A stretch of 64,000 bases of DNA, taken from the sequence record NZ_CP110908.1, one strand, 5' to 3'. A model generated the notes under the pieces. That model was not told where the DNA came from and did not search any database. It was given only the letters and a program-made list of their open reading frames with translations. The translations under genes and the position numbers were made by a program. Numbering within the stretch: the first letter of the stretch is position 1; each line of letters begins with the position of its first letter. Source of the stretch: a plasmid. Positions 1,132-26,530 of this stretch are shown here, piece by piece.

Positions 1132-1899
1132 TTAATCCCCGATGGGGTCTGTGTTGCGGACCTCGTTCAGCACATCCCGCAACACGCGACGGTCAAACCA
1201 GCGGCGGACCGGTTCCCCCGGGAAACGCAGAAGATCGGTCATCACTCCGGCCGCTTCGATTTCCTCCCGGGACTCATTCACCAGGGTGAGCAGGACCGGA
1301 CAAAACCGCGCACCCCGGACCAGTATGCCGTCCAGCACCTGATCCAGCCGTTCCCCGTCCTCACTGTCCAGCCAGTTGTCGTGCTCGTATTCGTCCGCAA
1401 CCAGTCGCCAGTCTCCGAAACGTTTTTCCATCAGCCGCGGCGCGGCAGACGGCACCAGAGCCGCCGCGATGCGCTTCGCGTCCTGACGAACAATGTCACA
1501 GATCCGGTCAATGAAATCTTTCAGGAAGGCCAGCAGGTCCCCGCATTCGGCTTTTGTCAGCCATTCCTGCGCATACGGCAGACTGATACAGGTAAAATCA
1601 GTCAGGGCTTCGGGCCGGGGATAAGACTGAGCCGGATACAGATGCAGCCGGGCGGGCGTACCTGCCAGCCGTTGCGCGCTGGCGGTCAGCAGTTTCGCCC
1701 GTCCGTCATTCAGGGCCTGGCACAACCGGGTTGTCAGCGCCAGGATCTCGTCTGCATCGAGCACGCCACTGGCGAACAGCCAGCCGGGTACGGTTTCGGG
1801 CGCGACGGGCGTCATACCAACTGAGTCGGGCCAGCCGGACCGGCGCAGCAGATTGTCACCGTGGCGCAGAATGAGGGCGTTCAGGGTATCGTTATTCAT
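1132..1899 (-). CDS. Hypothetical protein (255 aa)
   Basis: ORF 1132-2043 trimmed to ATG 1897-1899 (MNNDTLNALILRHG), which avoids overlap with the upstream gene and has a GAGAG SD. Confidence 0.55.
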   Translation of the reverse strand: MNNDTLNALILRHGDNLLRRSGWPDSVGMTPVAPETVPGWLFASGVLDADEILALTTRLCQALNDGRAKLLTASAQRLAGTPARLHLYPAQSYPRPEALTDFTCISLPYAQEWLTKAECGDLLAFLKDFIDRICDIVRQDAKRIAAALVPSAAPRLMEKRFGDWRLVADEYEHDNWLDSEDGERLDQVLDGILVRGARFCPVLLTLVNESREEIEAAGVMTDLLRFPGEPVRRWFDRRVLRDVLNEVRNTDPIGD

Positions 1900-2856: not shown

Positions 2857-3078
2857 TTAGTCCTTAAAGCAGGTATCCAGCTCAAGCATTTCGTTGTACG
2901 CCGCCATAAACAGGGCATTGATGCGGAAGAGCGTCTGACGAGCCAGGCGTTCGGTCAGCACTTCGGAATCAAAGCGATAGCGGTGCTGCATGTCGTTCAG
3001 CGCGTCCCGCAGGTCACTCATGTTGTTGGCCAGTTCCGCCACGTCTGCGCGGAGTTTTTCGTGTCCGGCATAGTTCAT
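2857..3078 (-). CDS. Small hypothetical protein (73 aa)
   Basis: ORF start overlaps the methylase stop (ATGA-type coupling). Confidence 0.45.
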   Translation of the reverse strand: MNYAGHEKLRADVAELANNMSDLRDALNDMQHRYRFDSEVLTERLARQTLFRINALFMAAYNEMLELDTCFKD

Positions 3079-3758
3079 TACGCGGCCTCCGGATAAAAGA
3101 CGTCGTTGGCTGCCGGGCGCTGCATGGCGCGCTGCACGGATGACAGGCGCTCAATTCCGGCTTTGTGGTACTGCTCCATCAGCTCAATCCCGATATAACG
3201 GCGCCCTGCCTGGACGGCGGCCACACAGGTGGAGCCGGAACCGGCAAACGGATCGAGAACAATGGCGTTCGGGTGTGTGAAGCTCTCGATCAACGGTTGC
3301 AGACTGGTCACGGGTTTTTCGGTCGGATGGTGACGGTTGCCGCTGTATTTCCAGCCCAGAACATCCGGTAACGGGTCCGGCGGCAGCGCCGGACGGCCTT
3401 TCGCCAGGATATAGGCGCATTCATGGCGGTAGCCGACATAGGCCGATTTCGACGAGTAGGTTTTGGTGAAAACCAGATGCCCGACCACGCTGAACCCGGC
3501 GCTTTTCCATGCGGCCATGAAGCGATCGACGCGGTTCCAGCCGTAGAAGCTCACCATCAGCGCGTCTTTTTTGAGGACGCGATACATCTCATTGCAGGCT
3601 GGTTGGAGCCATTCATCGGTTTTGTCACCGGCAATACTGCGGCCGGAACGGTCACGGAACCCGACCAGATACGGGGGATCGGTGAGAATGAAATCAACGG
3701 CACGCTCCGGAAAGCCGGACATAATATCGACGCAGTTACCCAGGATAAAACGGGACAT
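3078..3758 (-). CDS. Orphan site-specific DNA methyltransferase (N6-adenine/N4-cytosine, DPPY motif)
   Basis: 226 aa with ILTDPPYLVGF catalytic motif and FAGSGSTCVAA AdoMet motif; no restriction partner gene adjacent. Confidence 0.85.
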   Translation of the reverse strand: MSRFILGNCVDIMSGFPERAVDFILTDPPYLVGFRDRSGRSIAGDKTDEWLQPACNEMYRVLKKDALMVSFYGWNRVDRFMAAWKSAGFSVVGHLVFTKTYSSKSAYVGYRHECAYILAKGRPALPPDPLPDVLGWKYSGNRHHPTEKPVTSLQPLIESFTHPNAIVLDPFAGSGSTCVAAVQAGRRYIGIELMEQYHKAGIERLSSVQRAMQRPAANDVFYPEAA

Positions 3759-4514: not shown

Positions 4515-5450
4515 TCAGCCGCCAAAATGCGCCACGTTGTTGATAATCCACTCCGGGCCGATCACATCAGGGAAGCTGTCCTCATCGTCCGGGTCAGCCT
4601 CGCCCCATTCCAGCTCGTCAGTGATGTACACGTCCGTTTCGCCGCTGACGTACCGGGCATAACCGCAGTAATTGCAGCCCTGCTCCGCAAACCAATGCTC
4701 CACTTCACCGCCATATCGCTGACTGAGTTCAGCCACAACGACCTCGCCAACCGGACTCCAGGGGGTGTCAAAATCCACCGTCAGCGTGTTCTCTCCGGCG
4801 AAACAGATATTTGACTCATAACCGACCGGCCACTTGCAACCGTACCGGGTCAGATAGTGGTCATATGACGACGGGACACCCGTCAGCAGGCCACCGTTGA
4901 AGCCGTTCACTTCAATATCCAGGCGCGTCGGCAGGACATCACGCAAATCCACTGGCTCTGCGGCAAACAAATCATCACCAGCATCGCACAGGCTGTTCCA
5001 CCATTCCTCCACCGGCGCAGGCCGGAAACTGTTTCCCCAGTCAAAAGATTTTTGCTGGTACAGCTGCCGGATGACTACCTGTTCCGGTTCACTGAGGGTA
5101 GCCCAGCGGGCATGCCCGATATGGCTGTCCAGCCAGCACTGATGCAGCGTCTGGCAGGTTTCCACATCCAGCACAGCTCCGGCCATAAACATCGCCAGCC
5201 AGTCGCTGTATGCCTGGGCTGAAGCCCGGTTGTCTGCGGCCATCCCGTGAGCAACCAGTTGCGGGTATGGCGTGTAACACAGTTCTGTCAGGGGGCGCAG
5301 TATCCCCGCACAGCCTGCCAGGAAAAGCTGAATACCGTCTTTTCTGGCGCGGCGATGCAGGGACAGCCCGCCTCCGGCAATCCACGTTTTGAGGGCATCA
5401 CTGTTTTGAATACCACTGAACATCAGTCGGTTGGCACACCAGTTCGGCAT
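4515..5450 (-). CDS. DUF1281-family protein (MPNWC N-terminus)
   Basis: 311 aa beginning MPNWCANRL, the characteristic start of DUF1281 plasmid proteins. Confidence 0.65.
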   Translation of the reverse strand: MPNWCANRLMFSGIQNSDALKTWIAGGGLSLHRRARKDGIQLFLAGCAGILRPLTELCYTPYPQLVAHGMAADNRASAQAYSDWLAMFMAGAVLDVETCQTLHQCWLDSHIGHARWATLSEPEQVVIRQLYQQKSFDWGNSFRPAPVEEWWNSLCDAGDDLFAAEPVDLRDVLPTRLDIEVNGFNGGLLTGVPSSYDHYLTRYGCKWPVGYESNICFAGENTLTVDFDTPWSPVGEVVVAELSQRYGGEVEHWFAEQGCNYCGYARYVSGETDVYITDELEWGEADPDDEDSFPDVIGPEWIINNVAHFGG

Positions 5451-5474
5451 GGGAAGCTCCTTACACAGTCAGGG

Positions 5475-12453: not shown

Positions 12454-12515
12454 TATCCCTCGTTTAATTCTCCGCTCGGTTAGACATTCAGGTATTTCTG
12501 TCCACGTCAGTTAGC

Positions 12516-12914
12516 TCAGGTCCATAACGAAAGAATCCAGCCAGCTATCACATCGTTTGAAATTGATGCGAAAACTCCACACGCGCCTCCAAGCCACCAT
12601 TTATGCTTTCCCACAAAACGCTTTAGCTTTTCCCCTCTGGTAAGTGATGCCTCATGCAATTCGATAAGCGTTATCCATTCCTGTATCTTCTGTTTATAAT
12701 AATTCCAGCTATTCTTATCTACCTGTTCCTGAGATAGCGGTTTTATTCTTCTGGAGATCCAGCCGCAGAATTCGGGAGGCATAATTTCCGATAACTCTTT
12801 TACACCAAAATCAAACCGGTGCTGGTTAAGAAGAGATATAATTTCTCTCTGTTCAGCGGTGTTAAGCCCAGCGCGGTCGCGGACTTCAATTAGTTGGTCC
12901 AGTGTCATAAGCAA
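12516..12914 (-). CDS. Hypothetical protein (132 aa, C-terminal hydrophobic segment)
   Basis: ORF in an AT-rich segment. Confidence 0.4.
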   Translation of the reverse strand: MLMTLDQLIEVRDRAGLNTAEQREIISLLNQHRFDFGVKELSEIMPPEFCGWISRRIKPLSQEQVDKNSWNYYKQKIQEWITLIELHEASLTRGEKLKRFVGKHKWWLGGACGVFASISNDVIAGWILSLWT

Positions 12915-13044
12915 GCCCTCTTATGGTTGAAGACCCCTATTTTATCACCTCCGGAACATGGCCGTAGAAGTCGCCCTGTTATGTCCATTTATAATAAATT
13001 TGCGTTCGCCTGGACGTTCAGTTGTTTCAGTTCACTTACTTACC

Positions 13045-13548
13045 TTACCTCCGCCAGAACGCCCACCATGCATGTTGTTTGCCCTGAAGTGCAGCTTTAT
13101 CCTGAAGTAATTCAGCACTAACTACCCCCTGAAGCATAGAAACGGAGTCTCTCGCGGCATTACGGTAGGAATCAATAAGATCACTGGGCTTTCTGAGCAA
13201 AATAAATTGCGATACTTTTGCCTGAGTATCAAACGCATAAACTCGTAATTCAGACGAAGAAGTGAGACTCACAATATTATGCAACCGCATATAATCGGTG
13301 TAGTCCTCGCCACCTGGATCACATGATTCATAAAGATATTTCTGCATTAGCAATTGCGATGAAGAAAGGAAATCTATATAGCGGTCAGTTTTTTTATCTA
13401 TATCACGCAGTCGCTGAGCTACTGCTTCTTTCCTAATTTCATGGAGGTGTGTTAATTTCAGTGTAATCCAGCCGCCAACAATGGTGATTAACGCGCCCAG
13501 ACCGATTTTAACGGCACTGTCAGCCACATCCACCCACTCAAGCGCCAT
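13045..13548 (-). CDS. Hypothetical protein (167 aa, N-terminal TM)
   Basis: ORF in an AT-rich segment. Confidence 0.4.
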   Translation of the reverse strand: MALEWVDVADSAVKIGLGALITIVGGWITLKLTHLHEIRKEAVAQRLRDIDKKTDRYIDFLSSSQLLMQKYLYESCDPGGEDYTDYMRLHNIVSLTSSSELRVYAFDTQAKVSQFILLRKPSDLIDSYRNAARDSVSMLQGVVSAELLQDKAALQGKQHAWWAFWRR

Positions 13549-13785
13549 CTGCTATCCCTTCTATTTCTGTGATGATCATGACTGTCAGTATAAATCCCCG
13601 GCGGATTGGACATACAGCGCTTTCTGTCCAGTTCAATCCATGCCTCGCTCTATCACCTTCAATCATGCACCAAGAATGTACAAAAAATGTTTTCTAACTT
13701 GGACATTTCGGCACTATCGGAAAAAGTGTCCAGAAAATATTTCTGGTGATCGTATTTAATTTTGTTGACCCGCTGCGCAAACCGT

Positions 13786-13850
13786 GAGTCTGTTCAGAAC
13801 TTGCTTCTGAACAGGGGAGGGGTTGGACAAGCCCGCCGGGCGCGTCAGCA
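13786..13850 (+). other. Recombination-site-like module A
   Basis: IR TCTGTTCAGAACTTGCTTCTGAACAG followed by GGTTGGACAAGCCCGCCGGGCGCGTCAG; about 80 percent identical to module B at 23877-23945. Confidence 0.5.
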
Positions 13851-13970
13851 AGTCACATTGGGGTATGCTCTATATATACCATCCGAAAAAATACCGGCTA
13901 ATATTATTGTTACCACATAAGTGATACCATCATAAGCAAGACCACTTAAAAGTTACCAGAAGGACAAAAT

Positions 13971-14612
13971 ATGTTCGTTTTTGGTTACCTCCGGGCATCC
14001 ACTTCAGAGCAGGATGCCAGCCGGGCAAAAAATGCACTGAAGGCATTTGCAAACCAACATGGCCACCGTATTGCTGGCTGGTATATCGACAATGTCTCCG
14101 GTGCGACAATGAACCGTCCTGAACTGATCAGGCTTCTTGGTGATGCGGAACCTGGTGATGTGATTCTCATTGAACAGGTCGACAGGCTTACTCGACTGGA
14201 TGATGCAGGCTGGGAGACACTCAGAAAGCAAATCACCGACAAGCAGTTGGCCATCGTCAGTCTTGATTTACCAACCAGCCATCTGGCGCTATCCAGCACA
14301 GTAAGTGATGACTTCACCCGAAGCATGCTGAAGGCCGTAAATGGCATGATGCTGGATATGCTCGCCGCTATTGCCAGAAAAGACTACGAAGACCGTCGAC
14401 GTCGCCAGGCAGAGGGAATCTGTAAAGCGAAAACTGAAGGAAAATACCGGGGCAGGGTGGCCGATGCACAGAAACATGAACTGATACGTACTCTGCGCCT
14501 GGTCAACGGAAAATCGCTGCGAGAAACAGCCCGCCTGGCTGGCGTTTCCAAAATGACTGTCATCAGAGTCTGCAATGCTCAGAATGTAGAGCCAGAGACG
14601 GCTAATACCTAA
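13971..14612 (+). CDS. Serine recombinase (resolvase/invertase family)
   Basis: 213 aa; N-terminal GYLRASTSEQD catalytic-serine motif; C-terminal HTH. Confidence 0.85.
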   Translation: MFVFGYLRASTSEQDASRAKNALKAFANQHGHRIAGWYIDNVSGATMNRPELIRLLGDAEPGDVILIEQVDRLTRLDDAGWETLRKQITDKQLAIVSLDLPTSHLALSSTVSDDFTRSMLKAVNGMMLDMLAAIARKDYEDRRRRQAEGICKAKTEGKYRGRVADAQKHELIRTLRLVNGKSLRETARLAGVSKMTVIRVCNAQNVEPETANT

Positions 14613-14778
14613 GATGAATAACGTAACCCACACTCTGAAAGGACATAGCATGAATGATATACCATTTGTTACGTTCACCTCTGATCCTAGACTGGCCCCC
14701 TGAATCTCCAGACAACCAATATCACTTAAATAAGTGATAGTCTTAATACTAGTTTTTAGACTAGTCATTGGAGAGCAG

Positions 14779-15144
14779 ATGATTGATGTCTTAGGACCGG
14801 AGAAACGCAGACGGCGTACTACACAGGAAAAGATCGCTATTGTTCAGCAGAGTTTTGAACCGGGAATGACGGTCTCCCTTGTTGCCCGGCAACACGGTGT
14901 GGCAGCCAGCCAGTTATTTCTCTGGCGCAAGCAATACCAGGAGGGAAGTCTTACTGCTGTGGCCGCAGGAGAGCAGGTCGTTCCTGCCTCTGAACTTGCT
15001 GCTGCCATGAAGCAGATTAAAGAACTCCAGCGCCTGCTCGGCAAAAAAACGATGGAAAATGAACTCCTTAAAGAAGCCGTTGAATACGGGCGTGCAAAAA
15101 AGTGGATAGCGCACGCGCCCTTATTGCCCGGGGATGGGGAGTAA
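14779..15144 (+). CDS. insC: IS2 transposase OrfA (InsC)
   Basis: [40 protein letters not shown]... Confidence 0.9.
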
Positions 15145-16007
15145 GCTTAGTCAGCCGTTGTCTCCGGGTGTCGCGTGCGCAGTTGCACGTAATTCTCAGA
15201 CGAACCGATGACTGGAAAGATGGTCGCCGCAGCCGTCACTCAGATGATACGGATGTGCTTCTCCGTATACACCATGTTATCGGAGAGCTGCCCACGTATG
15301 GTTATCGTCGGGTATGGGCGCTGCTTCGCAGACAGGCCGAACTTGATGGTATGCCTGCGATCAATGCCAAACGTGTTTACCGGATCATGCGCCAGAATGC
15401 GCTGTTGCTTGAGCGAAAAACCGCTGTACCGCCATCGAAACGGGCACATACTGGCAAAGTGGCCGTGAAAGAAAGCAATCAACGATGGTGCTCTGACGGG
15501 TTCGAGTTCCGCTGTGATAACGGAGAAAAACTGCGAGTCACGTTCGCGCTGGACTGCTGTGACCGTGAGGCACTGCACTGGGCAGTCACTACGGGCGGCT
15601 TCGACAGTGAAACAGTACAGGACGTAATGCTGGGAGCGGTGGAACGCCGCTTCGGCAACGAGCTTCCGGCGTCTCCAGTAGAGTGGCTGACGGATAATGG
15701 TTCATGCTACCGGGCTAATGAAACACGGCAGTTTGCCCGGATGTTGGGGCTTGAACCGAAGAACACGGCGGTGCGGAGTCCGGAGAGTAACGGCATAGCA
15801 GAGAGCTTCGTGAAAACGATAAAGCGTGACTACATCAGTATCATGCCTAAACCAGACGGGTTAACGGCAGCAAAGAACCTTGCAGAGGCGTTCGAGCATT
15901 ATAACGAATGGCATCCGCATAGTGCACTGGGTTATCGCTCGCCACGGGAATATCTGCGGCAGCGGGCCAGTAATGGGTTAAGTGATAACAGGTGTCTGGA
16001 ACTATAG
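15102..16007 (+). CDS. insD: IS2 transposase OrfB (InsD)
   Basis: 301-aa DDE integrase-type ORF overlapping orfA in the -1 frame. Confidence 0.9.
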
Positions 16008-16322
16008 GGGCAAATCCAGATCCTATTGAAGGTGAAGTGAGTCAGGCTCTTTCTCTTTATAAAATTGCATTGATAAAAACCAATTACCGCAATTTTTGGC
16101 ATCGTCTGTTATGTAAATTAAGGGATAAAGAAGCACTTGAAAACGAATGTATTCTTGTCAAACAGGAAATACGATGTAGAGATGTCATCAATCAGTCCGA
16201 TGCACACAGAGAAATGCTAAAAATTCTTATAAGTCAACAACCCTCGGATATCCGTCAACGAGATCAGTTTAGCCGATTACTTGAACCTTCATCAACCAAT
16301 GCACTCTATAGAGAACATAGTG

Positions 16323-16676
16323 ATGACAAATAAATCAGGGGCCAACGGGCATTACGGCTATCTTTTTGAAGAGCCGGTAGATGAAATATCTGGTGATATC
16401 CTTATCGATTTAGAAAATCTACCGCCAGAGATGAAGCAGACTATTCTCTTGCTCGTGAAAAATGCAGCTGACCGTGATGCGGCGCAGAAAGCGCTGTCCG
16501 ACATAATGAAGCAAATTGAGTTTGATGTAACCGCTGCTGATTTGCAGCATATCTTTTTAAACCAGGTAACGCTTAAAGATCAGCATGGGAAAAAGGGGAC
16601 CGAACCACCCCGGAACGATCCCCTGAAGGAATGGCAATTCCGTTCACCGCCAATATTAGCTTTTTCCGGGCTGTGA
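16323..16676 (+). CDS. Hypothetical protein (117 aa), coupled to the disrupted upstream ORF
   Basis: ATG overlaps the upstream stop (ATGACAAATAA). Confidence 0.45.
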   Translation: MTNKSGANGHYGYLFEEPVDEISGDILIDLENLPPEMKQTILLLVKNAADRDAAQKALSDIMKQIEFDVTAADLQHIFLNQVTLKDQHGKKGTEPPRNDPLKEWQFRSPPILAFSGL

Positions 16677-16712
16677 TAACATATCCGGGTGATTTTTCAG
16701 AGCTCAGGACTG

Positions 16713-17651
16713 ATGAAGAAGAAATCCGGTACACCCACACCCCATGACGCGACATTTCGCCAGTTCCTGGCGAATCCCGATGTCGCCCGTGACTTCATGA
16801 TGTTACATCTCCCGGCTGAATTACGCGCGCTGTGCGATTTGACCACGCTGAAGCTGGAGTCCGGTACCTTCGTTGAGGACGACTTACGTCAGTACGCCAG
16901 CGACATTCTCTGGAGCATGAAAACCACCACCGGCGATGACGGGTACATCCATCTGCTTCTGGAACACCAGAGTTCGGCGGATAAAAATATGGCCTTTCGT
17001 CAGCTCAGATATGCTGTCGCCGCCATGCAACGTCATCTTGAAGCGGGTCATAAAAAACTGCCGCTGGTCATCCCGGTTCTGTTTTACCACGGCAGCCGGA
17101 GTCCGTACCCGTTCTCCACGAACTGGCTGGATTGTTTCAGTAACCCGGAACAGGCCGGAAAAGTATACACGACAGGATTCCCGCTGGTTGATGTCACCGT
17201 CATCGATGATGATGAGATAATGAACCACAGACGGATGGCCGCACTGACCCTGCTGATGAAACATATCCGCCAGCGGGACATGATGGAACTGCTGGACAGG
17301 CTACCCCGGGTGATGGTGGAATGGATTTCCCCCGAACAGGTCCGCGTTCTGATAAACTACATGTTAAATGCAGGCGAAGCGCCTGCACCGGAATTTATGC
17401 GGGCGCTGGCAGAGCGTCTGCCGCAACACGAGGATGAACTGATGACCATCGCACAACAGCTTGAACAGATTGGCATCGAGAAGGGCCTGCAGCAGGGCCT
17501 GCAGTTAGGTGAGCAACGCGGTATTGAAAAAGGCCGCAATGAAGGCAAACTCGAAGTTGCCCGCACCATGCTCCAGAACGGTATCGACCGCAGTACCGTC
17601 ATGAAAATGACCGGTCTGACTGAAGACGATCTGGCGCAGATCCGCCACTAA
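16713..17651 (+). CDS. Rpn-family recombination-promoting nuclease / putative transposase (YhgA-like)
   Basis: MKKKSGTPTPHDATFRQFL...DILW...; C-terminal QQGLQLGEQRGIEKG repeats typical of Rpn/YhgA. Confidence 0.7.
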   Translation: MKKKSGTPTPHDATFRQFLANPDVARDFMMLHLPAELRALCDLTTLKLESGTFVEDDLRQYASDILWSMKTTTGDDGYIHLLLEHQSSADKNMAFRQLRYAVAAMQRHLEAGHKKLPLVIPVLFYHGSRSPYPFSTNWLDCFSNPEQAGKVYTTGFPLVDVTVIDDDEIMNHRRMAALTLLMKHIRQRDMMELLDRLPRVMVEWISPEQVRVLINYMLNAGEAPAPEFMRALAERLPQHEDELMTIAQQLEQIGIEKGLQQGLQLGEQRGIEKGRNEGKLEVARTMLQNGIDRSTVMKMTGLTEDDLAQIRH

Positions 17652-17737
17652 TCCCCCTTTCCCGGCACTCCCTGTCCGGCCATCAGCGAATACTGGTGGG
17701 GCAGGGAGGCACCAGACTCAGGCTCTGCCTGCCAGCC

Positions 17738-18532
17738 TCACGCTGTCCGCAGTGATGTCGGGGGATAATGTGTGCTTACCATCAGAAGCGAAGCCTCCTG
17801 CTTTTCAAGTTCGGCTCTGGCGTTTTCCGACAAACCATCATCTGTAATTATTGTATCAAAGGCGTCCAGCGACAATGCCAGCCAGGTCGCCACCTGGCCA
17901 TATTTTGTGGCGTCACAGACCAGTATCCGTTGCCTGCTGGCGTCGGCTATCGCCCGTTTTACCGTCACCTTATCTTCTGCCGGGGTGGAAATGCCCCGGA
18001 CACTCCACGACGAGGCAGAGATAAATGCCTGATCAATCATCAGCCCACGCAACATGGTTGCCGTGGCTTCCCCCACACATGAACGGTTTTCCCGGCAAAC
18101 AGCCCCCCCGGTGTGAATAATTGTGCAACTGCTGTTATCAAGCAGAAAATCTGCGATGACAAAATCATTGGTGACCACGGTAAGAGGTTCTGTTTTAACC
18201 AGATGCTGAGCGATGGCAAGAGTGGTCGTTCCTGCATCCAGATAGATGCAACTGCCGGGCTGAATGAGACTGGCTGCAAGCTTTCCGATCGCTGTTTTTT
18301 GCTTCATTGCCAGTGCTGTTTTCATCTGATGGGAAGGCTCATGCGCCACTCTCCCGGATAACTGAACACCACCAGACACCAGCGTCACGGCCCCCTGCTG
18401 CTCCAGTTTTTGCAAATCCCGGCGAATGGTCATATGCGACACATTTAACCTGTCTATCAGCTCAGCAATACTGACAACGCTTTTTTCAGCAATCATCCCC
18501 AGGATAATTTGTCGACGTTCTGCGGGTATCAA
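17738..18532 (-). CDS. ygbI: DeoR-family transcriptional regulator (YgbI-like)
   Basis: N-terminal HTH (RRQIILGMIAEKSVVSIAELIDRLNVSHMTIRRDL) plus DeoR C-terminal sugar-binding domain. Confidence 0.8.
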   Translation of the reverse strand: MIPAERRQIILGMIAEKSVVSIAELIDRLNVSHMTIRRDLQKLEQQGAVTLVSGGVQLSGRVAHEPSHQMKTALAMKQKTAIGKLAASLIQPGSCIYLDAGTTTLAIAQHLVKTEPLTVVTNDFVIADFLLDNSSCTIIHTGGAVCRENRSCVGEATATMLRGLMIDQAFISASSWSVRGISTPAEDKVTVKRAIADASRQRILVCDATKYGQVATWLALSLDAFDTIITDDGLSENARAELEKQEASLLMVSTHYPPTSLRTA

Positions 18533-18725
18533 CTTCAGCTCCTTCCTTTTGACCTGCGGTCATTCTACGTTATTTGTTCGTTATACGTGTATGACCCGTA
18601 TTCTGGATTCACATAAATTAACAGCATATGTTAATTTATGTGACGCGATTCACTAACCAGCTTTCGTTAACTGTATATATTAACAATATAGAACAAAATA
18701 ACACTTAAATTAACAAGGAAAGAAG

Positions 18726-19634
18726 ATGAAAACGGGCTCAGAGTATCATGTCGGTGTTGTTGGTTTAGGTTCAATGGGGATGGGAGCGGCACTGTCATGC
18801 GTGCGCGCCGGTCTGTCCACCTGGGGGGCTGATCTGAACGTCAGAGCATGCGAAACCCTCAAAAAATCAGGGGCATGCGGCGTTTCTGATAACGCAGCAG
18901 TGTTTGCAGAAAAACTGGATGCGCTGCTGTTACTGGTGGTCAACGCGGCTCAGGTGAAGCAGATACTGTTTGGCGATAACGGTGTTGCCCGGCATCTGAA
19001 ACCCGGAACCGTTGTGATGGTTTCCTCCACAATTGCCAGTGCTGATGCACAGGAAATTGCTACAGCCCTGGCGGCATTCGATCTGGATATGCTGGATGCA
19101 CCTGTTTCCGGTGGCGCGATCAAAGCGGCTGACGGGGAAATGACCGTCATGGCTTCCGGCAGTGATAACGCTTTCGCCCGTCTCGAACCAGTCCTGGATG
19201 CTATTGCAGGCAAAGTTTACCGCATTGGTAAAGAACCGGGCCTGGGTGCCACGGTGAAAATAATTCACCAGCTTTTAGCGGGTGTACATATTGCCGCAGG
19301 GGCAGAAGCAATGGCACTGGCCGCACGCGCGGGCATTCCACTGGATGTGATGTATGACGTGGTCACCCACGCTGCCGGCAACTCCTGGATGTTCGAAAAC
19401 CGGATGCGCCACGTTGTTGATGGTGATTACACAGCTAAATCTGCCGTTGATATATTCGTAAAAGATTTAGGGTTAGTGGCCGATACCGCTAAATCACTCC
19501 ACTTCCCGCTGCCCCTGGCATCAACCGCATTCAATATGTTCACTGCAGCCAGTAACGCCGGTTACGGCAAAGAAGATGACAGTGCGGTCATCAAAATTTT
19601 CTCCGGTATCACTCTTCCTGGGAGAAAATCATGA
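18726..19634 (+). CDS. ltnD: L-threonate dehydrogenase (3-hydroxyisobutyrate dehydrogenase family, YgbJ/LtnD-like)
   Basis: 302 aa; GVVGLGSMGMGAA NAD-binding motif. Confidence 0.8.
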   Translation: MKTGSEYHVGVVGLGSMGMGAALSCVRAGLSTWGADLNVRACETLKKSGACGVSDNAAVFAEKLDALLLLVVNAAQVKQILFGDNGVARHLKPGTVVMVSSTIASADAQEIATALAAFDLDMLDAPVSGGAIKAADGEMTVMASGSDNAFARLEPVLDAIAGKVYRIGKEPGLGATVKIIHQLLAGVHIAAGAEAMALAARAGIPLDVMYDVVTHAAGNSWMFENRMRHVVDGDYTAKSAVDIFVKDLGLVADTAKSLHFPLPLASTAFNMFTAASNAGYGKEDDSAVIKIFSGITLPGRKS

Positions 19635-20893
19635 TCAAGATTGGTGTTATCGCCGATGACTTTACCGGCGCGACAGACATCGCCAGTTTTCTGGTGGAAA
19701 ACGGGTTATCTGCCGTGCAAATGAACGGGGTGCCAACGGGTGAACTGCCGGAAGACACCGACACGGTGGTTATCAGCCTGAAAACACGTTCCTGTCCAGT
19801 AACCGAAGCCATACAGCAATCGCTTAAGGCTCTTGAGTGGTTACAGCGGCATGGCTGTCGCCAGATCTACTTTAAATACTGCTCCACCTTTGACAGCACA
19901 GCACAGGGTAATATCGGACCGGTTACCGATGCCCTGATGGACGCACTCGAAACACCGTTTACCGTCTTCTCTCCCTCGCTGCCTGTGAATGGTCGCACAG
20001 TGTATCAGGGCTACCTGTTTGTAATGAGTCAGCTGCTGGCTGAATCCGGAATGCGCCACCACCCGGTAAATCCCATGACCGACAGCTATCTTCCCCGGCT
20101 GGCCGAAGCACAGTCAAAAGGGCGCTGTGGCGTGGTTCCGGTCAGCATTCTTGAACAGGGTGCTGACGCCATTCGTCAGGAACTGGCTCGCTTACAGCAG
20201 GCAGGCTGTCGCTATGCCGTTCTTGATGCCCTGACAGAACACCATCTGGAGATCCAGGGCGAAGCCCTGCGTGACGCCCCGCTGGTGACCGGCGGTTCCG
20301 GTCTGGCGATTGGCCTGGCACGACAATGGGCCATACCTGGTCATTCCTCTGTACACGAAACGGTCCGGCCATTCACCGGGCGCGGTGTTGTGCTCTCCGG
20401 CTCCTGCTCGCAGATGACGAACCTGCAGGTGGCTCATTATTGCCGGATAGCCCCATCCCGTGAAGTGGATATTTCCCGTTGTCTCTCCGCAGAAACACTG
20501 GCGCCATACGTTTGTGAACTGGCTGCATGGGTATTACATCAGGAAAGCGATCTTGCCCCACTGGTGTTTGCCACCGCCAGTACCACCGCTCTGGCTGCCA
20601 TCCAACAACAATATGGAGCCCGGAAAGCCAGCCAGGCGGTGGAAGCCCTGTTTTCTCAGCTGGCTGCCCAACTGGCTGCAGACGGTGTCACACGTTTTAT
20701 TGTCGCCGGTGGGGAAACCTCGGGCGTGGTCACGCAGAGCCTCTCAGTCACAGGTTTTCACATCGGCCCGACAATTTCCGCCGGTGTGCCCTGGGTCAAT
20801 GCCCTTGATAAACCGGTTTCACTCGCCCTTAAATCCGGGAATTTCGGGGATGAAGCCTTTTTTTCGCGTGCCCAGAGAGAGTTTCAGCCATGA
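19631..20893 (+). CDS. otnK: Four-carbon acid sugar kinase (DUF1537 family, YgbK/OtnK-like)
   Basis: 420 aa; MIKIGVIADDFTGATD N-terminus. Confidence 0.75.
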   Translation: MIKIGVIADDFTGATDIASFLVENGLSAVQMNGVPTGELPEDTDTVVISLKTRSCPVTEAIQQSLKALEWLQRHGCRQIYFKYCSTFDSTAQGNIGPVTDALMDALETPFTVFSPSLPVNGRTVYQGYLFVMSQLLAESGMRHHPVNPMTDSYLPRLAEAQSKGRCGVVPVSILEQGADAIRQELARLQQAGCRYAVLDALTEHHLEIQGEALRDAPLVTGGSGLAIGLARQWAIPGHSSVHETVRPFTGRGVVLSGSCSQMTNLQVAHYCRIAPSREVDISRCLSAETLAPYVCELAAWVLHQESDLAPLVFATASTTALAAIQQQYGARKASQAVEALFSQLAAQLAADGVTRFIVAGGETSGVVTQSLSVTGFHIGPTISAGVPWVNALDKPVSLALKSGNFGDEAFFSRAQREFQP

Positions 20894-21528
20894 ATGATGC
20901 CGCAAAAAAAGAACAATTCCTGCGGGAGGAAATGATTCGGATCGCCGGCTCTTTCTTTCAGCGCGGCTATGCCACAGGTTCGGCCGGCAATCTGTCCCTG
21001 CTTTTACCCGACGGCAACTTACTGGCAACGCCAACAGGGTCGAGTCTGGGTAATCTTGACCCACAACGGCTTTCCAAAGTGACGCCCGGGGGGGAATGGC
21101 TGAGTGGTGACAAACCGTCCAAAGAGGTGCGCTTCCATCTGGCGCTGTATCAAAACAATCCGGGTTGCAAAGCGGTGGTGCATTTGCACAGCACCTGGTC
21201 AACGGCACTTTCCTGCCTACAGGGGCTGAACAGCAGCAATGTCATCCGCCCTTTTACGCCTTATGTCGTCATGCGGATGGGAAATATCCCACTGATACCC
21301 TATTACCGTCCCGGAGATAAACGCATCGCTCAGGATCTGGCTAAACTGGCCGCCGATCATCAGGCTTTTTTACTGGCAAATCATGGACCGGTTGTCTGTG
21401 GGGAAAGTCTGCAGGAGGCCGCTAACAATATGGAAGAACTGGAGGAAACGGCAAAGTTGATCTTCATCCTCAATGACCGTCCGATCCGGTATCTGACCAC
21501 CGATGAAATTGCTGAGTTAAGGAGCTGA
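20890..21528 (+). CDS. otnC: Class II aldolase/adducin family (YgbL/OtnC-like decarboxylase)
   Basis: 212 aa. Confidence 0.75.
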
Positions 21529-21532
21529 TACC

Positions 21533-22309
21533 ATGCCACGTTTTGCCGCTAATTTGTCCATGATGTTCACTGAGATCCCCTTTATTGAACGTTTTGCTGC
21601 CGCGCGAAATGCAGGATTTAATGCTGTGGAGTTTCTGTTTCCTTATGATCACTCCCCGCATGAAATCCGGCAGCAACTGACACAAAACAATCTGACGCTT
21701 GTCCTGTTTAATACTGCAGCAGGAAATATCCATGCAGGAGAATGGGGATTATCCGCCCTGCCAGGGCGGGAGAAGGAGGCCCGTACGGATATCGATCGGG
21801 CACTGGAATATGCGCTGGCTCTCAATTGCGAGCAGGTCCACGTCATGGCAGGGGTCGTCCCCACCGGTGAAGATGCAGGCCTGTGTCGTGAGGTCTTTAT
21901 CGACAACCTTCGCTATGCTGCCGAACGCTTTGCACCACACGGTAAACGCGTCCTGATCGAAGCGCTCAGCCCTGGTGTGAAACCTGACTATCTTTTCTCC
22001 AGCCAGTATCAGGCACTGGCGATTGTTAAAGAGGTCTCGCGTCCGAACGTCTTTATCCAGCTGGATACTTTCCATGCTCAAAAAGTGGATGGCAATCTGA
22101 CCCGGTTAATCCGCGATTACGCCGGAAAATATGCCCACGTTCAAATTGCCGGACTTCCTGACCGGCATGAACCGGACGACGGAGAAATTAACTATTCATG
22201 GCTTTTCCGCCTGTTCGATGAGGTGGAATACCCGGGCTGGATTGGGTGTGAGTACACCCCCCGAACCCATACCGAAGCTGGGCTTGGCTGGTTTAACGCC
22301 TGGCGATAA
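21533..22309 (+). CDS. otnI: Hydroxypyruvate isomerase family (YgbM/OtnI-like)
   Basis: 258 aa xylose-isomerase-like TIM barrel. Confidence 0.75.
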
Positions 22310-22397
22310 CGCTTAATTCATTATCACAACGACTCTACATTCCCCCCATCTCCGGATGGGGCAGGTTAACTATAACTTTCAGACAGGGTTTCTCATG

Positions 22398-23762
22398 TCC
22401 ACTATCACATTGTTATGCATTGCGTTAGCCGGCGTAATCATGCTGTTACTGCTGGTCATTAAGGCAAAAGTTCAGCCTTTCATTGCACTGTTGCTCGTCA
22501 GTCTGGTCGTTGCACTAGCCGCGGGGATCCCGGCGGGTGACGTCAGCAAAGTCATGATCGCCGGAATGGGAGGTGTTCTCGGCTCCGTCACGATTATTAT
22601 CGGCCTTGGCGCAATGTTAGGGCGGATGATAGAGCATTCTGGCGGTGCTGAATCTCTGGCCAACTATTTCAGCCAAAAACTGGGAAGTAAACGCACCATT
22701 GCTGCACTCACCCTGGCCGCATTTTTCCTGGGTATTCCCGTGTTCTTTGATGTCGGGTTTATTATTCTGGCACCGATTATTTACGGTTTTGCCAAAGTAG
22801 CCAGGCTGTCCCCACTTAAATTTGGTTTGCCGGTCGCCGGGATTATGCTGACCGTTCACGTGGCGGTACCTCCTCATCCAGGCCCGGTAGCCGCCGCAGG
22901 GTTACTCCATGCAGATATTGGCTGGCTGACCATTCTCGGTATCGCCATTTCCATTCCGGTCGGTATTGTCGGCTACATTGCAGCCAGAATGATCAATAAA
23001 CGTCAGTACGCGCTGTCCGTTGACGTGCTGGAACAGATGCAACTGACTCCCGCGGCCAGTTCCGGGGAAACCACGAAAATCAGTGACAAAATGAGCCCCC
23101 CAGGTGTGGCGCTGGTTACCGCTCTGATTGTCATTCCAATTGCCATTATTATGGCCGGAACCGTGTCTGCCACGTTAATGCCGGCATCGCATCCGCTGTT
23201 AGGCACGCTACAACTGCTTGGCTCCCCGATGGTGGCGCTGATGATTGCGCTGATACTGGCATTCTGGTTGCTGGCTTTACGTCGGGGCTGGGGTTTACAA
23301 CATACCAGCGACATTATGGGGTCGGCGCTACCCACTGCAGCAGTTGTCATCCTGGTGACGGGGGCGGGGGGCGTATTTGGTAAGGTTCTGGTGGAGTCCG
23401 GCGTGGGTAAGGCCCTTGCCAGTATGCTCCATATGATGGACCTGCCTCTGTTGCCTGCCGCCTTTATCATTTCACTGGCTCTCAGGGCATCACAGGGCTC
23501 AGCGACAGTGGCTATTCTTACTACCGGTGGGCTACTTTCTGAAGCTGTTGTGGGGCTAAATCCGATCCAGTGCGTGCTGGTTACACTGGCTGCCTGCTTT
23601 GGCGGACTTGGGGCATCACATATCAACGACTCTGGTTTCTGGATCGTGACCCGATACCTGGGATTAAGTGTGGCAGATGGACTGAAAACCTGGACCGTAT
23701 TAACCACGATCCTCGGCTTCACAGGCTTCCTGATTACCTGGGGCATATGGGCAGTGGTTTAG
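22398..23762 (+). CDS. ygbN: GntP-family permease (YgbN-like)
   Basis: ORF 22356-23762 trimmed to MSTITLLCIALAGV; multi-TM. Confidence 0.75.
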   Translation, partial: STITLLCIALAGVIMLLLLVIKAKVQPFIALLLVSLVVALAAGIPAGDVSKVMIAGMGGVLGSVTIIIGLGAMLGRMIEHSGGAESLANYFSQKLGSKRTIAALTLAAFFLGIPVFFDVGFIILAPIIYGFAKVARLSPLKFGLPVAGIMLTVHVAVPPHPGPVAAAGLLHADIGWLTILGIAISIPVGIVGYIAARMINKRQYALSVDVLEQMQLTPAASSGETTKISDKMSPPGVALVTALIVIPIAIIMAGTVSATLMPASHPLLGTLQLLGSPMVALMIALILAFWLLALRRGWGLQHTSDIMGSALPTAAVVILVTGAGGVFGKVLVESGVGKALASMLHMMDLPLLPAAFIISLALRASQGSATVAILTTGGLLSEAVVGLNPIQCVLVTLAACFGGLGASHINDSGFWIVTRYLGLSVADGLKTWTVLTTILGFTGFLITWGIWAVV

Positions 23763-23876
23763 CGTCAGTAAAAATCAGACACCAGTCAGAATTTTCACGC
23801 CCTGACCAGGAATGGTGAGGGGATGGGCATTCCGGTCACAGTCACCGCTGGTGAGCCACATCGCTTTACCTTTGCA

Positions 23877-23945
23877 ACCTGATGTCTGCTCAAAACTTGT
23901 TTTTGAGCAGACGACGGGTTGGGCAAGCCCGCCGGGCGCGTCAGG
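23877..23945 (+). other. Recombination-site-like module B (candidate rfsF-type site) downstream of resD
   Basis: Perfect IR TCTGCTCAAAACTTGTTTTTGAGCAGA followed by GGTTGGGCAAGCCCGCCGGGCGCGTCAG. Confidence 0.5.
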
Positions 23946-23960
23946 CCGTTATCAAAGGAC

Positions 23961-24752
23961 TCACACTGACCCTTTCAGCATGGCCACCGCATCCGTCTCC
24001 GGCATCTGAAACTGCACCCGGTGCCGCGCCGCCACGTCCAGTGCAAACACCTTCGTGTACACCTCTGTCGAACTGACTGACTTGTGGCCCATCAGGCTCT
24101 GCAGCACCTTCAGCGGGATACCGGCGTACAGCATATGCATGGCGTAGCTGTGACGGAACGTATGCGGTGTCACCGGCACGGAGAACATCACGCCGTCGAC
24201 CGCAGCGATTTCAACCGCTTCATTCAGCCAGGTCCGGACCGTCCGGTCGGTGATCTCCCAGATGCGGGCCTTCTCCGTTCTGCCGGTGCGTTTATTCTTC
24301 CGCTCAAGCGGGATCTTCAGCGTGGCAACCATCATCTCCAGCTGGCTGACATACTGCTGATCAGAAAGCGGTACCAGGCGATGCGCCTGACTGCCTGCAG
24401 GGGCACGGCCTGCCGTTCTGGCTGCTTTCTCCGTGCGCTGTTTCAGGGTGGCCAGTTGCACAAACGGATAAGGCGGCGCGAGCGAAAAATCCCCCCTTGT
24501 CAGGGCCAGGGCTTCGTTGATGCGTGCCCCGGTGTTCCACAACGTCGCCAGCAGCATTTTACGGTGCAGGTCCGGCACATAGTGGAGCAGGGCACTCACT
24601 TCCGGGGCCAGCAGGTATTTCGGCAGTTCATCCTGCACCAGCGCCATCTGACGCAGGACCAGCGCGGCCGGATAATCAATGGCCACCGGCAGATGAACGG
24701 GCTGAACCGGCGAATGCAATGCCGGTCGCTGTACCGGCAGGTTACTGTTCAT
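23961..24752 (-). CDS. resD: Tyrosine site-specific recombinase, F-plasmid ResD (D protein) type
   Basis: ORF 23961-24944 trimmed to MNSNLPVQRPALHSP; C-terminal HTFRHSYAMHMLYAGIPLKVLQSLMGHKSVSSTEVYTKV catalytic region; sits beside ccdAB as in F. Confidence 0.8.
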   Translation of the reverse strand: MNSNLPVQRPALHSPVQPVHLPVAIDYPAALVLRQMALVQDELPKYLLAPEVSALLHYVPDLHRKMLLATLWNTGARINEALALTRGDFSLAPPYPFVQLATLKQRTEKAARTAGRAPAGSQAHRLVPLSDQQYVSQLEMMVATLKIPLERKNKRTGRTEKARIWEITDRTVRTWLNEAVEIAAVDGVMFSVPVTPHTFRHSYAMHMLYAGIPLKVLQSLMGHKSVSSTEVYTKVFALDVAARHRVQFQMPETDAVAMLKGSV

Positions 24753-25057
24753 CCCGTTCTCCGTTGCCCTGCACCGGGCCATCAGTATCCGGAGCCATCC
24801 GCCAGACGGCCCCGCCGAACTCGGTTCCCCCGACCACCTGCGACCATTCGTCACTGCAGGCCAGGCTTTTCGCCACCACCGCAAAATCCACATGGCTGAG
24901 CGGGGTGTCGCCACGCTCGCCAGGCGTTTCCAGGACCAGACCATCCGGTACCACCGGGCCGGGCGTGCCGGCCAGTCTGGCAGAGCGGCGCCAGAAACTG
25001 CGGATACAGCCCCCCTGTCTCAGGACACTGAGCAGCACCTGTTCGCTGATCCGCATG

Positions 25058-25363
25058 TCAGATCCCCCGGAACATCAGGTTGATGGCGTTCTGGATGTCA
25101 TTCTCCAGGTGGCTGAGATCGGCCACTTCTTCCCCGATGACAGTGGCCGGCACACTGGCCATATCCGTGGTCATCAGACGATAAGGGTCACCTCCGACTG
25201 ACACCACCGGATAAAGCTCACGCGAGACTTTGTCGGACAGCAGGCGGGCGCTGACCAGCGGGATCACCATCCGGCGTCCCGGGGTGTCAATAATGTCACT
25301 CTGCACGTCGACGAACAGACGGTAGCGGCTTTCTCTTTTATAGGCGTAAACCTTAAACTGCAT
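25058..25363 (-). CDS. ccdB: CcdB toxin (gyrase poison)
   Basis: [35 protein letters not shown]...[10 protein letters not shown], 101 aa. Confidence 0.9.
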
Positions 25364-25364
25364 A

Positions 25365-25583
25365 TCACCAGTCCCTGTTTTCGTCAGCAAACGATCCGTT
25401 AGCCTCGATAAAGCTGGCCACCTCAGCCATACCTTCCCGGTTTTCTTCCTGCCAGCGTTCGGCGCGCAGACGGCGGGCTTCGTTCTGCATGGTCGTACTG
25501 ACCAGACCGGAGATATTTACGTCGTATGCCTTGAGCAACTGATAGCTGTCGCTGTCCACTGTCACTGTAATACGCTGCTTCAC
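25365..25583 (-). CDS. ccdA: CcdA antitoxin (GTG start)
   Basis: [44 protein letters not shown]...; GTG at 25581-25583; 72 codons. Confidence 0.85.
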
Positions 25584-26299
25584 AATGCACCTCTTTTTTA
25601 CATACTTCAGGTATGCCATAAAGTATACATTCTGCTGAAGCAAAAATCTGCTCCGCTCTGTGAATACTGTAAACCGGCTTACAGTGACTGAGTTAACTGT
25701 ACACTGCTGTTATAGACATACCTCGCATATGCATTTTGATGCGCATCTTATTGATGCCGGATTTCGCCTCTTAAAACGCATACTGTTAGCCAGCCACTAG
25801 TAACCTAATCATATTTTACACATAGCAACTTTCACCAGATGCAATTACAACTCAACTTATAAAAACACCCCTGAATTACCGGATGGCAGTTTTCTGGTGA
25901 TCCGATTTCTGGAGTATTTAAGACTTTCCGGAAGTGTACCACGGGCAGGGAATAAGCAAAGCGGTCTTTTCCGGCCCTGTGCGACAGGTCAGGAAAAGAG
26001 AGAGTAACACAACATATAGTAGATAATCCGTCTTACGGAGTAGTGCATTTTGTGTTTCCGGGCCGAAGATCGCCGGAGTGGTACAGGAAGATCCGGGACT
26101 GCCTTTTTTCGGATCTGAGCGGGAAAAGTGAGAAACCAACATAGGTGTAACATATCCATATGCCGGGCATCTGCATAGGCAAAGCATACGCATATACCTA
26201 CCATCTGCATATGTAACACCTATACAAGCCGGGCTTGCAGGCATATACTTCACCTATGCGGGAATACTCCCTGGCACACTCAGCATATGAGGAAAAACC

Positions 26300-26530
26300 A
26301 TGCGCACAGTTTCGATATTTAAAAACGGCAATAACCGCGCCATCCGTCTGCCCCGGGACCTGGATTTTGATGGCGTCAGCGAGCTGGAGATCGTCCGGGA
26401 AGGGGACAGCATCATTCTGCGTCCCGTCCGGCCGACCTGGGGCTCGTTCGCGCAGCTGGACAGGGCCGATCCGGACTTTATGGCGGAGCGGGAAACTGTC
26501 TTCAGTGACCAGGGCCGGGGTGAGCAGTGA
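26300..26530 (+). CDS. vapB: VapB antitoxin (AbrB/SpoVT fold)
   Basis: 76 aa, MRTVSIFKNGNNRAIRLPRDL. Confidence 0.8.
   Translation: MRTVSIFKNGNNRAIRLPRDLDFDGVSELEIVREGDSIILRPVRPTWGSFAQLDRADPDFMAERETVFSDQGRGEQ

Follow-up and report, generated by a model that had tools for sequence, protein, structure and literature searches.

The subject of this analysis is a 64,000-nucleotide stretch of plasmid record NZ_CP110908.1 (the window), in which two copies of a conserved non-coding element, module A (13780-13848, + strand) and module B (23876-23944, + strand), bracket about 10 kb of DNA. Each module is composed of a long hairpin and a tail. The explanation given slightly better than even credence is that A and B are old, diverged copies of this element, that exchange at a dyad beside it made the mosaics in which it is now found, and that the interval between the copies is not excisable today. 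The repeats probably mark old recombination at this locus. The element appears to be undescribed: the sources searched gave neither an Rfam match nor an annotated feature for it.

The two modules

The A/B pair is the top direct repeat reported by a repeat finder in 12500-26500 (13788-13848 versus 23884-23944, 61 nt, 85% identity). In a global alignment from AACC to GTCAG, 59 of 70 positions (84%) match. The copies have the same orientation and a spacing of 10,096 bp. A covariance model made from 59 distinct family members finds them as the only two full copies in the window (E = 7e-48 and 2e-37), and a resemblance by chance is excluded. The initial annotation had reported two similar modules in direct orientation with the near-identical tail GGTTGG(A/G)CAAGCCCGCCGGGCGCGTCAG, and both observations hold, as do the positions it had given for the two modules. 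It had also given each module a hairpin of 26-27 bp. The hairpin is present, but that extent is too short, as a stem of ~20 bp runs from the base AACC...GGTT.

The long hairpin of module A occupies 13780-13824 (+), with the base AACC...GGTT and the loop CTTGC at 13800-13804. Its tail (13825-13848, +) is made up of GGACAA, a mini-hairpin GCCC-GCC-GGGC (13831-13841), and GCGTCAG; the alignment columns are invariant except for the triloop, which varies freely. The long hairpin of module B (23876-23920, +) has the loop CTTGT, folds as DNA with -22.4 kcal/mol (z = -4.5), and shows compensatory differences from A and from other copies adjacent to resD. Its tail (23921-23944, +) contains the mini-hairpin at 23927-23937 and GCGTCAG at 23938-23944, and is 96% identical to that of A.

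Homology of copy A with other plasmids extends beyond the module on both sides. Leftward it reaches ~80-130 bp into a left arm (TGGACATTTCGGCACTATCGGAAAAAGTGTCCAGAAAATATTTCTGGTGATCGTATTTAATTTTGTTGACC..., 13700-13779, +) that is kept in many family members, and rightward it crosses a res-like region to the start codon of a resolvase gene. In alignments, copy B retains a degenerate left-arm remnant (TGGTGAGCCACATCGC plus a 10-bp insertion, 23847-23875, +).

A plasmid family and its conserved structure

Among plasmid records, 1,811 have a match to module A and 1,022 to module B. Most come from Klebsiella, Salmonella, Escherichia, Enterobacter, Citrobacter, and Yersinia, and the plasmids include the Salmonella virulence plasmid pSLT, Yersinia pestis pMT1, and Klebsiella resistance and virulence plasmids. 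The tail pattern occurs in 17 species-representative genomes of Enterobacterales. A looser form of the pattern matches 66 metagenome contigs, ~20 of them by chance in GC-rich DNA. A phage collection gave no module match, and the tail sequence was met in full-text literature only as unrelated primer matches.

For structure analysis, 59 distinct copies were aligned. The family hairpin is imperfect, with 20 pairs, the base AACC...GGTT, and a near-invariant CTTG loop. The tail consists of GGACAA, a 4-bp helix GCCC/GGGC with a freely varying triloop, and invariant GCGTCAG. Paired cells amount to 85.9% on this structure, and to 83% for the long hairpin, versus 28-50% when the partner columns are slid. 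Double (compensatory) changes are found at seven pairs (e.g., G-C in 44 copies and A-T in 14), and none of 500 shuffles reached the observed covariation score. The palindromes of the left arm, an internal control, carry uncompensated changes. Variable arms with compensated changes around a conserved loop indicate a structure, since the opposite pattern is expected of a palindrome read by a dimeric protein. The alignment thus points to a hairpin conserved as structure.

The res-like region and the exchange of partners

In copy A, the tail is followed by the linker GTCACATT and the dyad GGTAT-N9-ATACC (13862-13880), which together span 13850-13884 (+) and form the candidate crossover site (site I) of the resolvase. 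A putative accessory region with repeated (A/T)TACC / GACC motifs (13885-13970, +) then runs up to the ATG of the resolvase gene (13971-14612, +). This gene encodes a small serine recombinase of 213 amino acids (Pfam Resolvase, E = 4.6e-24), and the best PDB match is Sin (2r0q, E = 3e-12).

The placement of the res-like region (13850-13970) directly upstream of a resolvase-family gene, which here starts at 13971, is kept in >30 loci. Nearly all non-B copies continue after the tail with GTCACATTnGGGTATAC. The dyad is kept, with its 9-bp spacing fixed, in all loci with orthologous resolvases, and the TACC/GACC repeats then run to the start codon. From this arrangement, the region is read as a Sin-like res in which the dyad at 13862-13880 would be the crossover site. 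A literature search for a resolvase/res system in IncF plasmids returned nothing relevant.

Neighbors of the module were surveyed by tblastn of the window proteins against all family loci. The right-hand neighbor is nearly always recombination-related. In most loci, an orthologous serine recombinase starts 150 bp after the tail start and is usually followed by rpn, as in pMT1 and Klebsiella plasmids. Loci of the pSLT type have rpn alone to the right of the module, and some loci have a different resolvase, 27% identical, in this position. In ~15 loci, the neighbor is a convergent resD (-), with its stop codon either 48 bp (module B of the window, L009, L023, L024, and L040) or 131-146 bp (L021, L030, L045, L057, L072, L074, and L089) after the tail start. 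Left neighbors are a P1-type parA (~200 bp away), the M14 gene, or unrelated DNA.

Hairpin and right flank have separate histories. Three loci (L058, L072, and L048) have hairpins 100% identical to that of A and right flanks only 42-66% identical, i.e., unrelated. In three others (L004, L019, and L055), the stretch from res to the resolvase start is 96-100% identical to the window and the hairpins only 86-88%. The right flanks diverge just past GGGTATAC, and further breakpoints gather at the base of the hairpin on its left side. The arms stay matched within each copy, and no exchange inside the hairpin was seen. As read from these alignments, the homology breakpoints fall next to the module at the dyad, and not inside the hairpin. 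The claim that the modules mark a recombination site therefore stands in part: breakpoints do cluster beside them, as at a recombination hub, but neither the hairpin nor ResD is indicated as the agent.

The loci adjacent to resD form a deletion series. A res-like region of ~130 bp abuts the resD stop codon in L072, L089, L057, and L074; 46 bp are left in pBM527-1, and ~16-40 bp in module B of the window, L009, L024, and L040. In these last four, the spacers cannot be aligned, the tails are 96-100% identical to that of A, and the hairpin is kept by compensatory changes. As the module is intact where the adjoining res has decayed, it is selected for in its own right, whether or not the res beside it is intact. 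In the window, the decayed remnant between module B and the resD stop codon measures 16 bp (23945-23960, +), and neither the dyad nor the accessory repeats are present in it. With only one res in place and B lacking both, the resolvase would be unable to excise the interval.

The proposed course of events begins with an element that is itself neither a crossover site nor rfsF, the site of F plasmid ResD. In its complete form, represented by copy A, the element would border, on the outer side, the res-like region that belongs to a small Sin-like serine resolvase. Exchange at the dyad or immediately beside it, presumably mediated by the resolvase, would repeatedly have joined the module to varied right-hand partners, among them rpn, the 3' end of resD, and further resolvases. 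One such junction would be copy B, with its res-like part later deleted to ~16 bp. The order module-res-resolvase-rpn-module-resD would then be an old mosaic backbone into which an IS3-family insertion sequence (IS) and the ygb operon were inserted later. Loss of the interval today would occur only by rare homologous recombination or slippage over ~21-28 identical tail bases.

Several points weigh against this account. Most family loci have a single module, which does not indicate a general two-module mechanism, and module and res may be linked by nothing more than their adjacent positions. The case for the dyad as a candidate crossover site is built on its symmetry, on where it lies, and on the breakpoints. 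We know of no characterized resolvase system with a conserved hairpin just outside the res site. The plasmids that resemble an empty site (described below) are only ~85% identical to the window and show neither a recent excision nor the direction of an event. Lastly, the strand asymmetry of the hairpin, discussed next, comes from three or four largely inherited pair positions and is weak evidence.

A possible single-stranded role

Because the module is intact where the adjoining res has decayed, the working view is that it may be an autonomous, structure-dependent cis element that acts single-stranded. Non-Watson-Crick cells on the + strand of the window are 124 G.T versus 9 A.C, at three or four largely inherited positions. 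This excess is only a hint that the + strand acts single-stranded. DNA folding of A and B gave similar results for the two strands, with no strand preference.

The transferred strand in conjugation is the template strand of leading-region and tra genes. In the F-like backbone, the predicted transferred strand is the + strand, with leading-region genes and resD on the opposite strand, and the same order is found in pSLT, which has oriT and tra genes. A + strand that is transferred is compatible with a role as single-stranded DNA, although this is one conserved synteny and no known type of signal fits.

A version of this idea that omits recombination altogether makes the module a single-strand-active element, e.g., a structured RNA or a signal for priming or loading on the strand that is transferred or serves as lagging template. 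The module would merely sit in maintenance regions, and two copies would mean that two maintenance modules had been brought together. The compensatory changes, the conserved loop between variable arms, the tolerance of G.T on the + strand, and the persistence of the module beside a decayed res would all agree with this. The + strand is also the predicted transferred strand both here and in pSLT, although the two share one synteny and are not independent. The recombination-related right neighbor, found nearly always, would be left unexplained by mere co-location. A search of Rfam 15 at gathering-free E-value thresholds found nothing, with E <= 1 as the limit over 13000-26500 and E <= 10 over 13690-13900. 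No sigma-70-like promoter was detected in a scan around both modules, and an intrinsic-terminator scan of both strands reported neither; the stems have no following T run. The stem is too short for promoter mimicry of the Frpo type, and there is no conserved CTG start for primase, the consensus CCTG being CAAG in copy A. A module with no connection to recombination is considered unlikely.

A somewhat better prospect, still put forward tentatively, is a new family of cis elements that act as single strands (transferred or lagging-template DNA, or RNA) and are kept by enterobacterial plasmids beside multimer-resolution or recombinase genes. Such a module may serve, once the plasmid has entered by conjugation, to load or time priming or recombination.

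Other known signals were compared with the module and set aside. LexA, CRP, ArgR, and DnaA boxes do not fit in spacing or sequence, and a sigma-54 promoter in the tail would have the wrong GG-GC spacing. A single-strand promoter like Frpo is not compatible with the 20-bp stem and the lack of a -10, nor a G4-type primase site with the lack of a conserved CTG. A phiX-type primosome site was rejected, as there is no similarity to the ssiA-like sequence of F downstream of resD. Tn3-family inverted repeats have just a 7-mer in common with the module. The loop CTTG is suggestive of an IS91 or rolling-circle nick site, but there is no HUH gene. The only terminator-like hairpins, on the - strand at 13730-13746 and 23782-23809, lie beyond the module boundaries.

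ResD and its site

The initial annotation had taken both modules as sites of the rfsF type, with module B at the position that rfsF has in F, and proposed that ResD could excise or capture the interval. The rfsF site is a 28-bp sequence, AGATCCGNAANNNNNNNNTTNCGGATCT, made up of two 10-bp inverted repeats and an 8-bp spacer (PMC8299605). In RepFIA regions of the F type, the order is rfsF, oriV-1, ccdAB, resD (PMC4398462). In F, the pattern AGATCCGNAA-N8-TTNCGGATCT (10-8-10) has one match, 391 bp upstream of ccdA. In the window, a search with up to 3 mismatches gave 26089-26116 (AGATCCGGGACTGCCTTTTTTCGGATCT) as the only match; it lies ~500 bp upstream of ccdA, departs from the published pattern at one position, and compares with a chance expectation of 0.05 matches. 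This rfsF homolog is syntenic with rfsF of F, and the oriV1-like sequence around it aligns with F.

The resD gene (23961-24752, -) encodes a tyrosine recombinase 86% identical to F ResD. It is followed by a hypothetical gene, ccdB, and ccdA (24742-25583, -), which is the operon order of F with one extra ORF (open reading frame). Colinearity between F and the window runs from the oriV1 region via ccdAB to the resD stop codon, where homology ends; F has no counterpart of module B after resD. The placement of module B at the rfsF position of F is thus incorrect, since rfsF lies upstream of ccdA and module B lies 3' of resD. Neither module matches the rfsF pattern, even with 3 mismatches.

Homology with pNDM_20ES (98.4% over 22425-26119) stops at 26119, the edge of the rfsF homolog. 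Because the homology ends there, 26089-26116 behaves as a real exchange point, which suggests ResD-mediated exchange at this site in the lineage.

The window has a single rfsF, so ResD is without a cognate pair of sites flanking the interval, and excision or capture through two such sites is not borne out. Judged from its site content, the present plasmid is one from which ResD cannot remove the 10 kb. The position of module B next to resD in several lineages, the shape of the hairpin, which resembles a tyrosine-recombinase core with inverted arms around a 5-7-bp spacer, and the proposal that ResD/rfsF systems have acquired foreign segments (PMC9412624) would speak for a ResD model. Beyond the missing site pair, it is opposed by the fact that most modules lie beside a serine recombinase with no resD nearby, by compensated arms around a conserved loop, the reverse of a protein-read palindrome, and by arms that remain matched within each copy with no crossover inside the hairpin. 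ResD action on the modules is therefore rated as very improbable.

Origin of the 10-kb interval

The gene content that the initial annotation gave for the interval (serine recombinase, IS, rpn, and ygb operon) is correct, and the IS is of the IS3 family. The IS3-family transposase gene (14779-16007, +, from the annotation) marks a late insertion; the element is absent from the otherwise 99.8-99.9% identical plasmids H2-H7. The rpn gene (16713-17651, +) encodes a YhgA-like recombination-promoting nuclease (Pfam Transposase_31, E = 3e-81; NCBIfam Rpn) and is a frequent neighbor downstream of the resolvase. Between rpn and module B lies a chromosome-type operon (17738-23762) composed of ygbI (-) and ltnD-otnK-aldolase-ygbM-like-gntP (+, 18726-23762). 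The stretch 17877-23755 of this ygb operon is 79% identical to the Escherichia coli chromosome (H25).

The Salmonella plasmid pAUSMDU00010532_01 (L024) contains an A-type module, rpn (split by an IS110 element), a B-type module, and resD, and lacks both the resolvase and the ygb operon. Its rpn match stops upstream of the B-type hairpin, ~60 bp short of the hairpin base. This arrangement without ygb indicates that the ygb operon is an insertion between rpn and module B. From these comparisons, the 10 kb reads as no single unit: it is a resolvase-rpn backbone with later IS and ygb insertions. In pNDM_20ES, module B, resD, and ccdAB are kept beside a truncated gntP.

Relatives lacking the island were also sought. 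When the left flank of A was joined artificially to the right flank of B, eight Citrobacter plasmids matched this junction over its whole length at ~85% identity; they have M14, one module, a short res remnant, and resD, and nothing else between. A junction-like arrangement thus exists, but the breakpoints point to the dyad and not to ResD or the hairpin. A reciprocal, circle-type junction (gntP-module-res-resolvase) is covered by no record in the plasmid collection. The plasmid pRHBSTW-00370_3 (H8) was rejected as an island-lacking relative, as all it shows is loss of the left part through ISKpn26. The locus therefore occurs with and without the resolvase-rpn segment, as would be expected if two res-bearing copies once recombined.

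Such an event could have been a capture by the serine resolvase, in which a circle that carried rpn and the resolvase together with a module and res, and perhaps ygb as well, entered a resident M14-module-res-resD locus by res x res exchange. One module would be left on each side, and later decay of the res beside B would have locked the insertion. The empty-site-like arrangement agrees with this, as do the direct-repeat modules that bracket the segment both in the window (resolvase-rpn) and in L024, the switch of right-hand partners exactly at the dyad, and the existence of resD-adjacent loci with a full res-like region (L072, L089, and L057). The lack of a circle-type junction among the plasmids argues against it, and most resolvase-rpn loci have a single module. 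The ygb operon between rpn and B is a separate insertion, and with A and B only 84% identical, any event must be ancient. Resolvases of this type normally favor intramolecular deletion. Capture is accordingly held to be improbable, and old mosaic formation at the dyad is the preferred reading.

Comparison with known systems

The window shares with the ResD (D protein)/rfsF multimer-resolution system of F the gene resD, ccdAB, the oriV1-like sequence, and a site of the rfsF pattern at the same relative position. The modules differ in having no 10-8-10 match, and B sits at the 3' end of resD, where F has no module. The region to the right of module A resembles the res sites of Sin and Tn3/gamma-delta in lying directly upstream of the resolvase gene and in having a distal dyad. 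Its proximal half-site-like motifs are partly direct repeats, as in site II of Sin. However, the resolvase of the window is only distantly related to Sin (E = 3e-12), and the subsites are putative. To our knowledge, no characterized res has a conserved 20-bp hairpin and a GC-rich box at its outer edge.

Integron attC sites and the attP of CTX phage are recombination substrates that fold as single strands, and the module resembles them as an imperfect hairpin with an internal loop in its commonest subtype. The module base carries invariant AAC...GTT triplets, and the right side fits GTTRRRY (GTTGGAC, GTTGGGC, and GTTGGAT). Unlike attC, the module has no complementary R'' (RYYYAAC)/R' boxes, and the sequence 5' of AAC cannot pair with that 3' of GTT. 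There is no intI near the modules, the sequence 3' of GTT is invariant and is not a cassette boundary, and the breakpoints are not at G/TT. A folded site of the attC kind was rejected, as R' fits but there is no complementary R box and no integron integrase nearby.

In ColE1, the cer locus serves resolution and, with Rcd, includes a structured nucleic-acid element that has a separate function. The module has no detected promoter and no sequence similarity to it, and the likeness is one of analogy only. The RecHS hot spot of IncA/C plasmids is a conserved inverted repeat of the backbone that is tied to cointegrate formation, with no assigned recombinase, and the inverted repeat itself was proposed as the crossover site (PMC5587640). 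The module differs in sequence and in plasmid backbone, and exchange is here placed beside the hairpin.

Other features of the region and its relatives

Positions 12500-25500 of the window are 100% identical, in reverse-complement orientation, to pCF1807-2 (NZ_CP110892.1), a conjugative IncC/IncFIC plasmid of 211 kb from Citrobacter freundii. The whole record NZ_CP110892.1 is a cointegrate, in which the F-like leading region is cut by Tn5403 and followed by an IncC backbone with mobI. An antirestriction gene of the F-like leading region is located at 183450-183878 of that record.

To the left of module A, the order on the + strand of the window is umuC, a RES-domain gene, two small ORFs, parB/parA-like genes (-), and three small genes. 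One of the three is annotated as 'peptidase M14' (13045-13548, -, 167 amino acids). This product name seems unsupported: the protein has no Pfam or NCBIfam match and a membrane-like N-terminus. Two small ORFs of no annotated family (15992-16333 and 16323-16676) follow the transposase gene, and homology with H8-H11 breaks at ~16410. No IS or repeat is visible at the edges of the ygb operon (17652-17737 and 23763-23846). In the annotated order, vapBC lies beyond ccdA. The right half of the window carries a capsule-type polysaccharide cluster, a uxu/uxa operon, blaTEM-1, and aac(3)-IId.

Small (30-40-kb) IncX-like E. coli plasmids (e.g., L095, 2490-2545) contain the left-arm stretch 13711-13767 but not the hairpin module; there, the stretch lies ~120 bp upstream of the gene for a ResD-like tyrosine recombinase (46% identity). 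It may serve ResD-family proteins as an operator or binding site. An 18-nt direct repeat, TTTCTGGTGATC(G/C)..ATTT, is present at 13740-13757 in the left arm of A and at 25891-25908 in the oriV1-like region, between rfsF and ccdA. The repeat contains a GATCCG-like half-site of rfsF.

Beyond A and B, the next match to the covariance model in the window (15 bits, E ~1e-3) is at 1803-1871 (+), inside a leading-region ORF, and is probably spurious. Among other family loci, the metagenome contig OEPS010000011.1 (L059) has two full modules (2976-3081 and 5350-5455) in direct orientation, 2.4 kb apart, and a resolvase follows just one of them. In Dryocola sp. BD626 (L008, 1657-1685), the tail (GGTTGGACAAGCCCTGCGGGCGCGTCAG) is found without the long hairpin. 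The tail may thus occur on its own.

Significance

The ResD/rfsF system, small serine resolvases, and the mosaic backbones of IncF plasmids are already known. What appears to be new is the element and its near-constant association with recombinase genes across ~1,800 plasmids, where it sits at mosaic junctions beside a recombinase or rpn gene. In this plasmid family, the target of ResD is the site at 26089-26116. The ygb operon is not a ResD-excisable island, and annotation and evolutionary accounts should not treat it as such.

If the dyad is the crossover site of the resolvase, the locus would be a recurrent point of segment exchange in IncF-type backbones, which would bear on the reshuffling of virulence, resistance, and metabolic modules. 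If the hairpin has a single-strand function of its own, it would be a new plasmid cis element. In that case, the copies would be functional sites, not relics.

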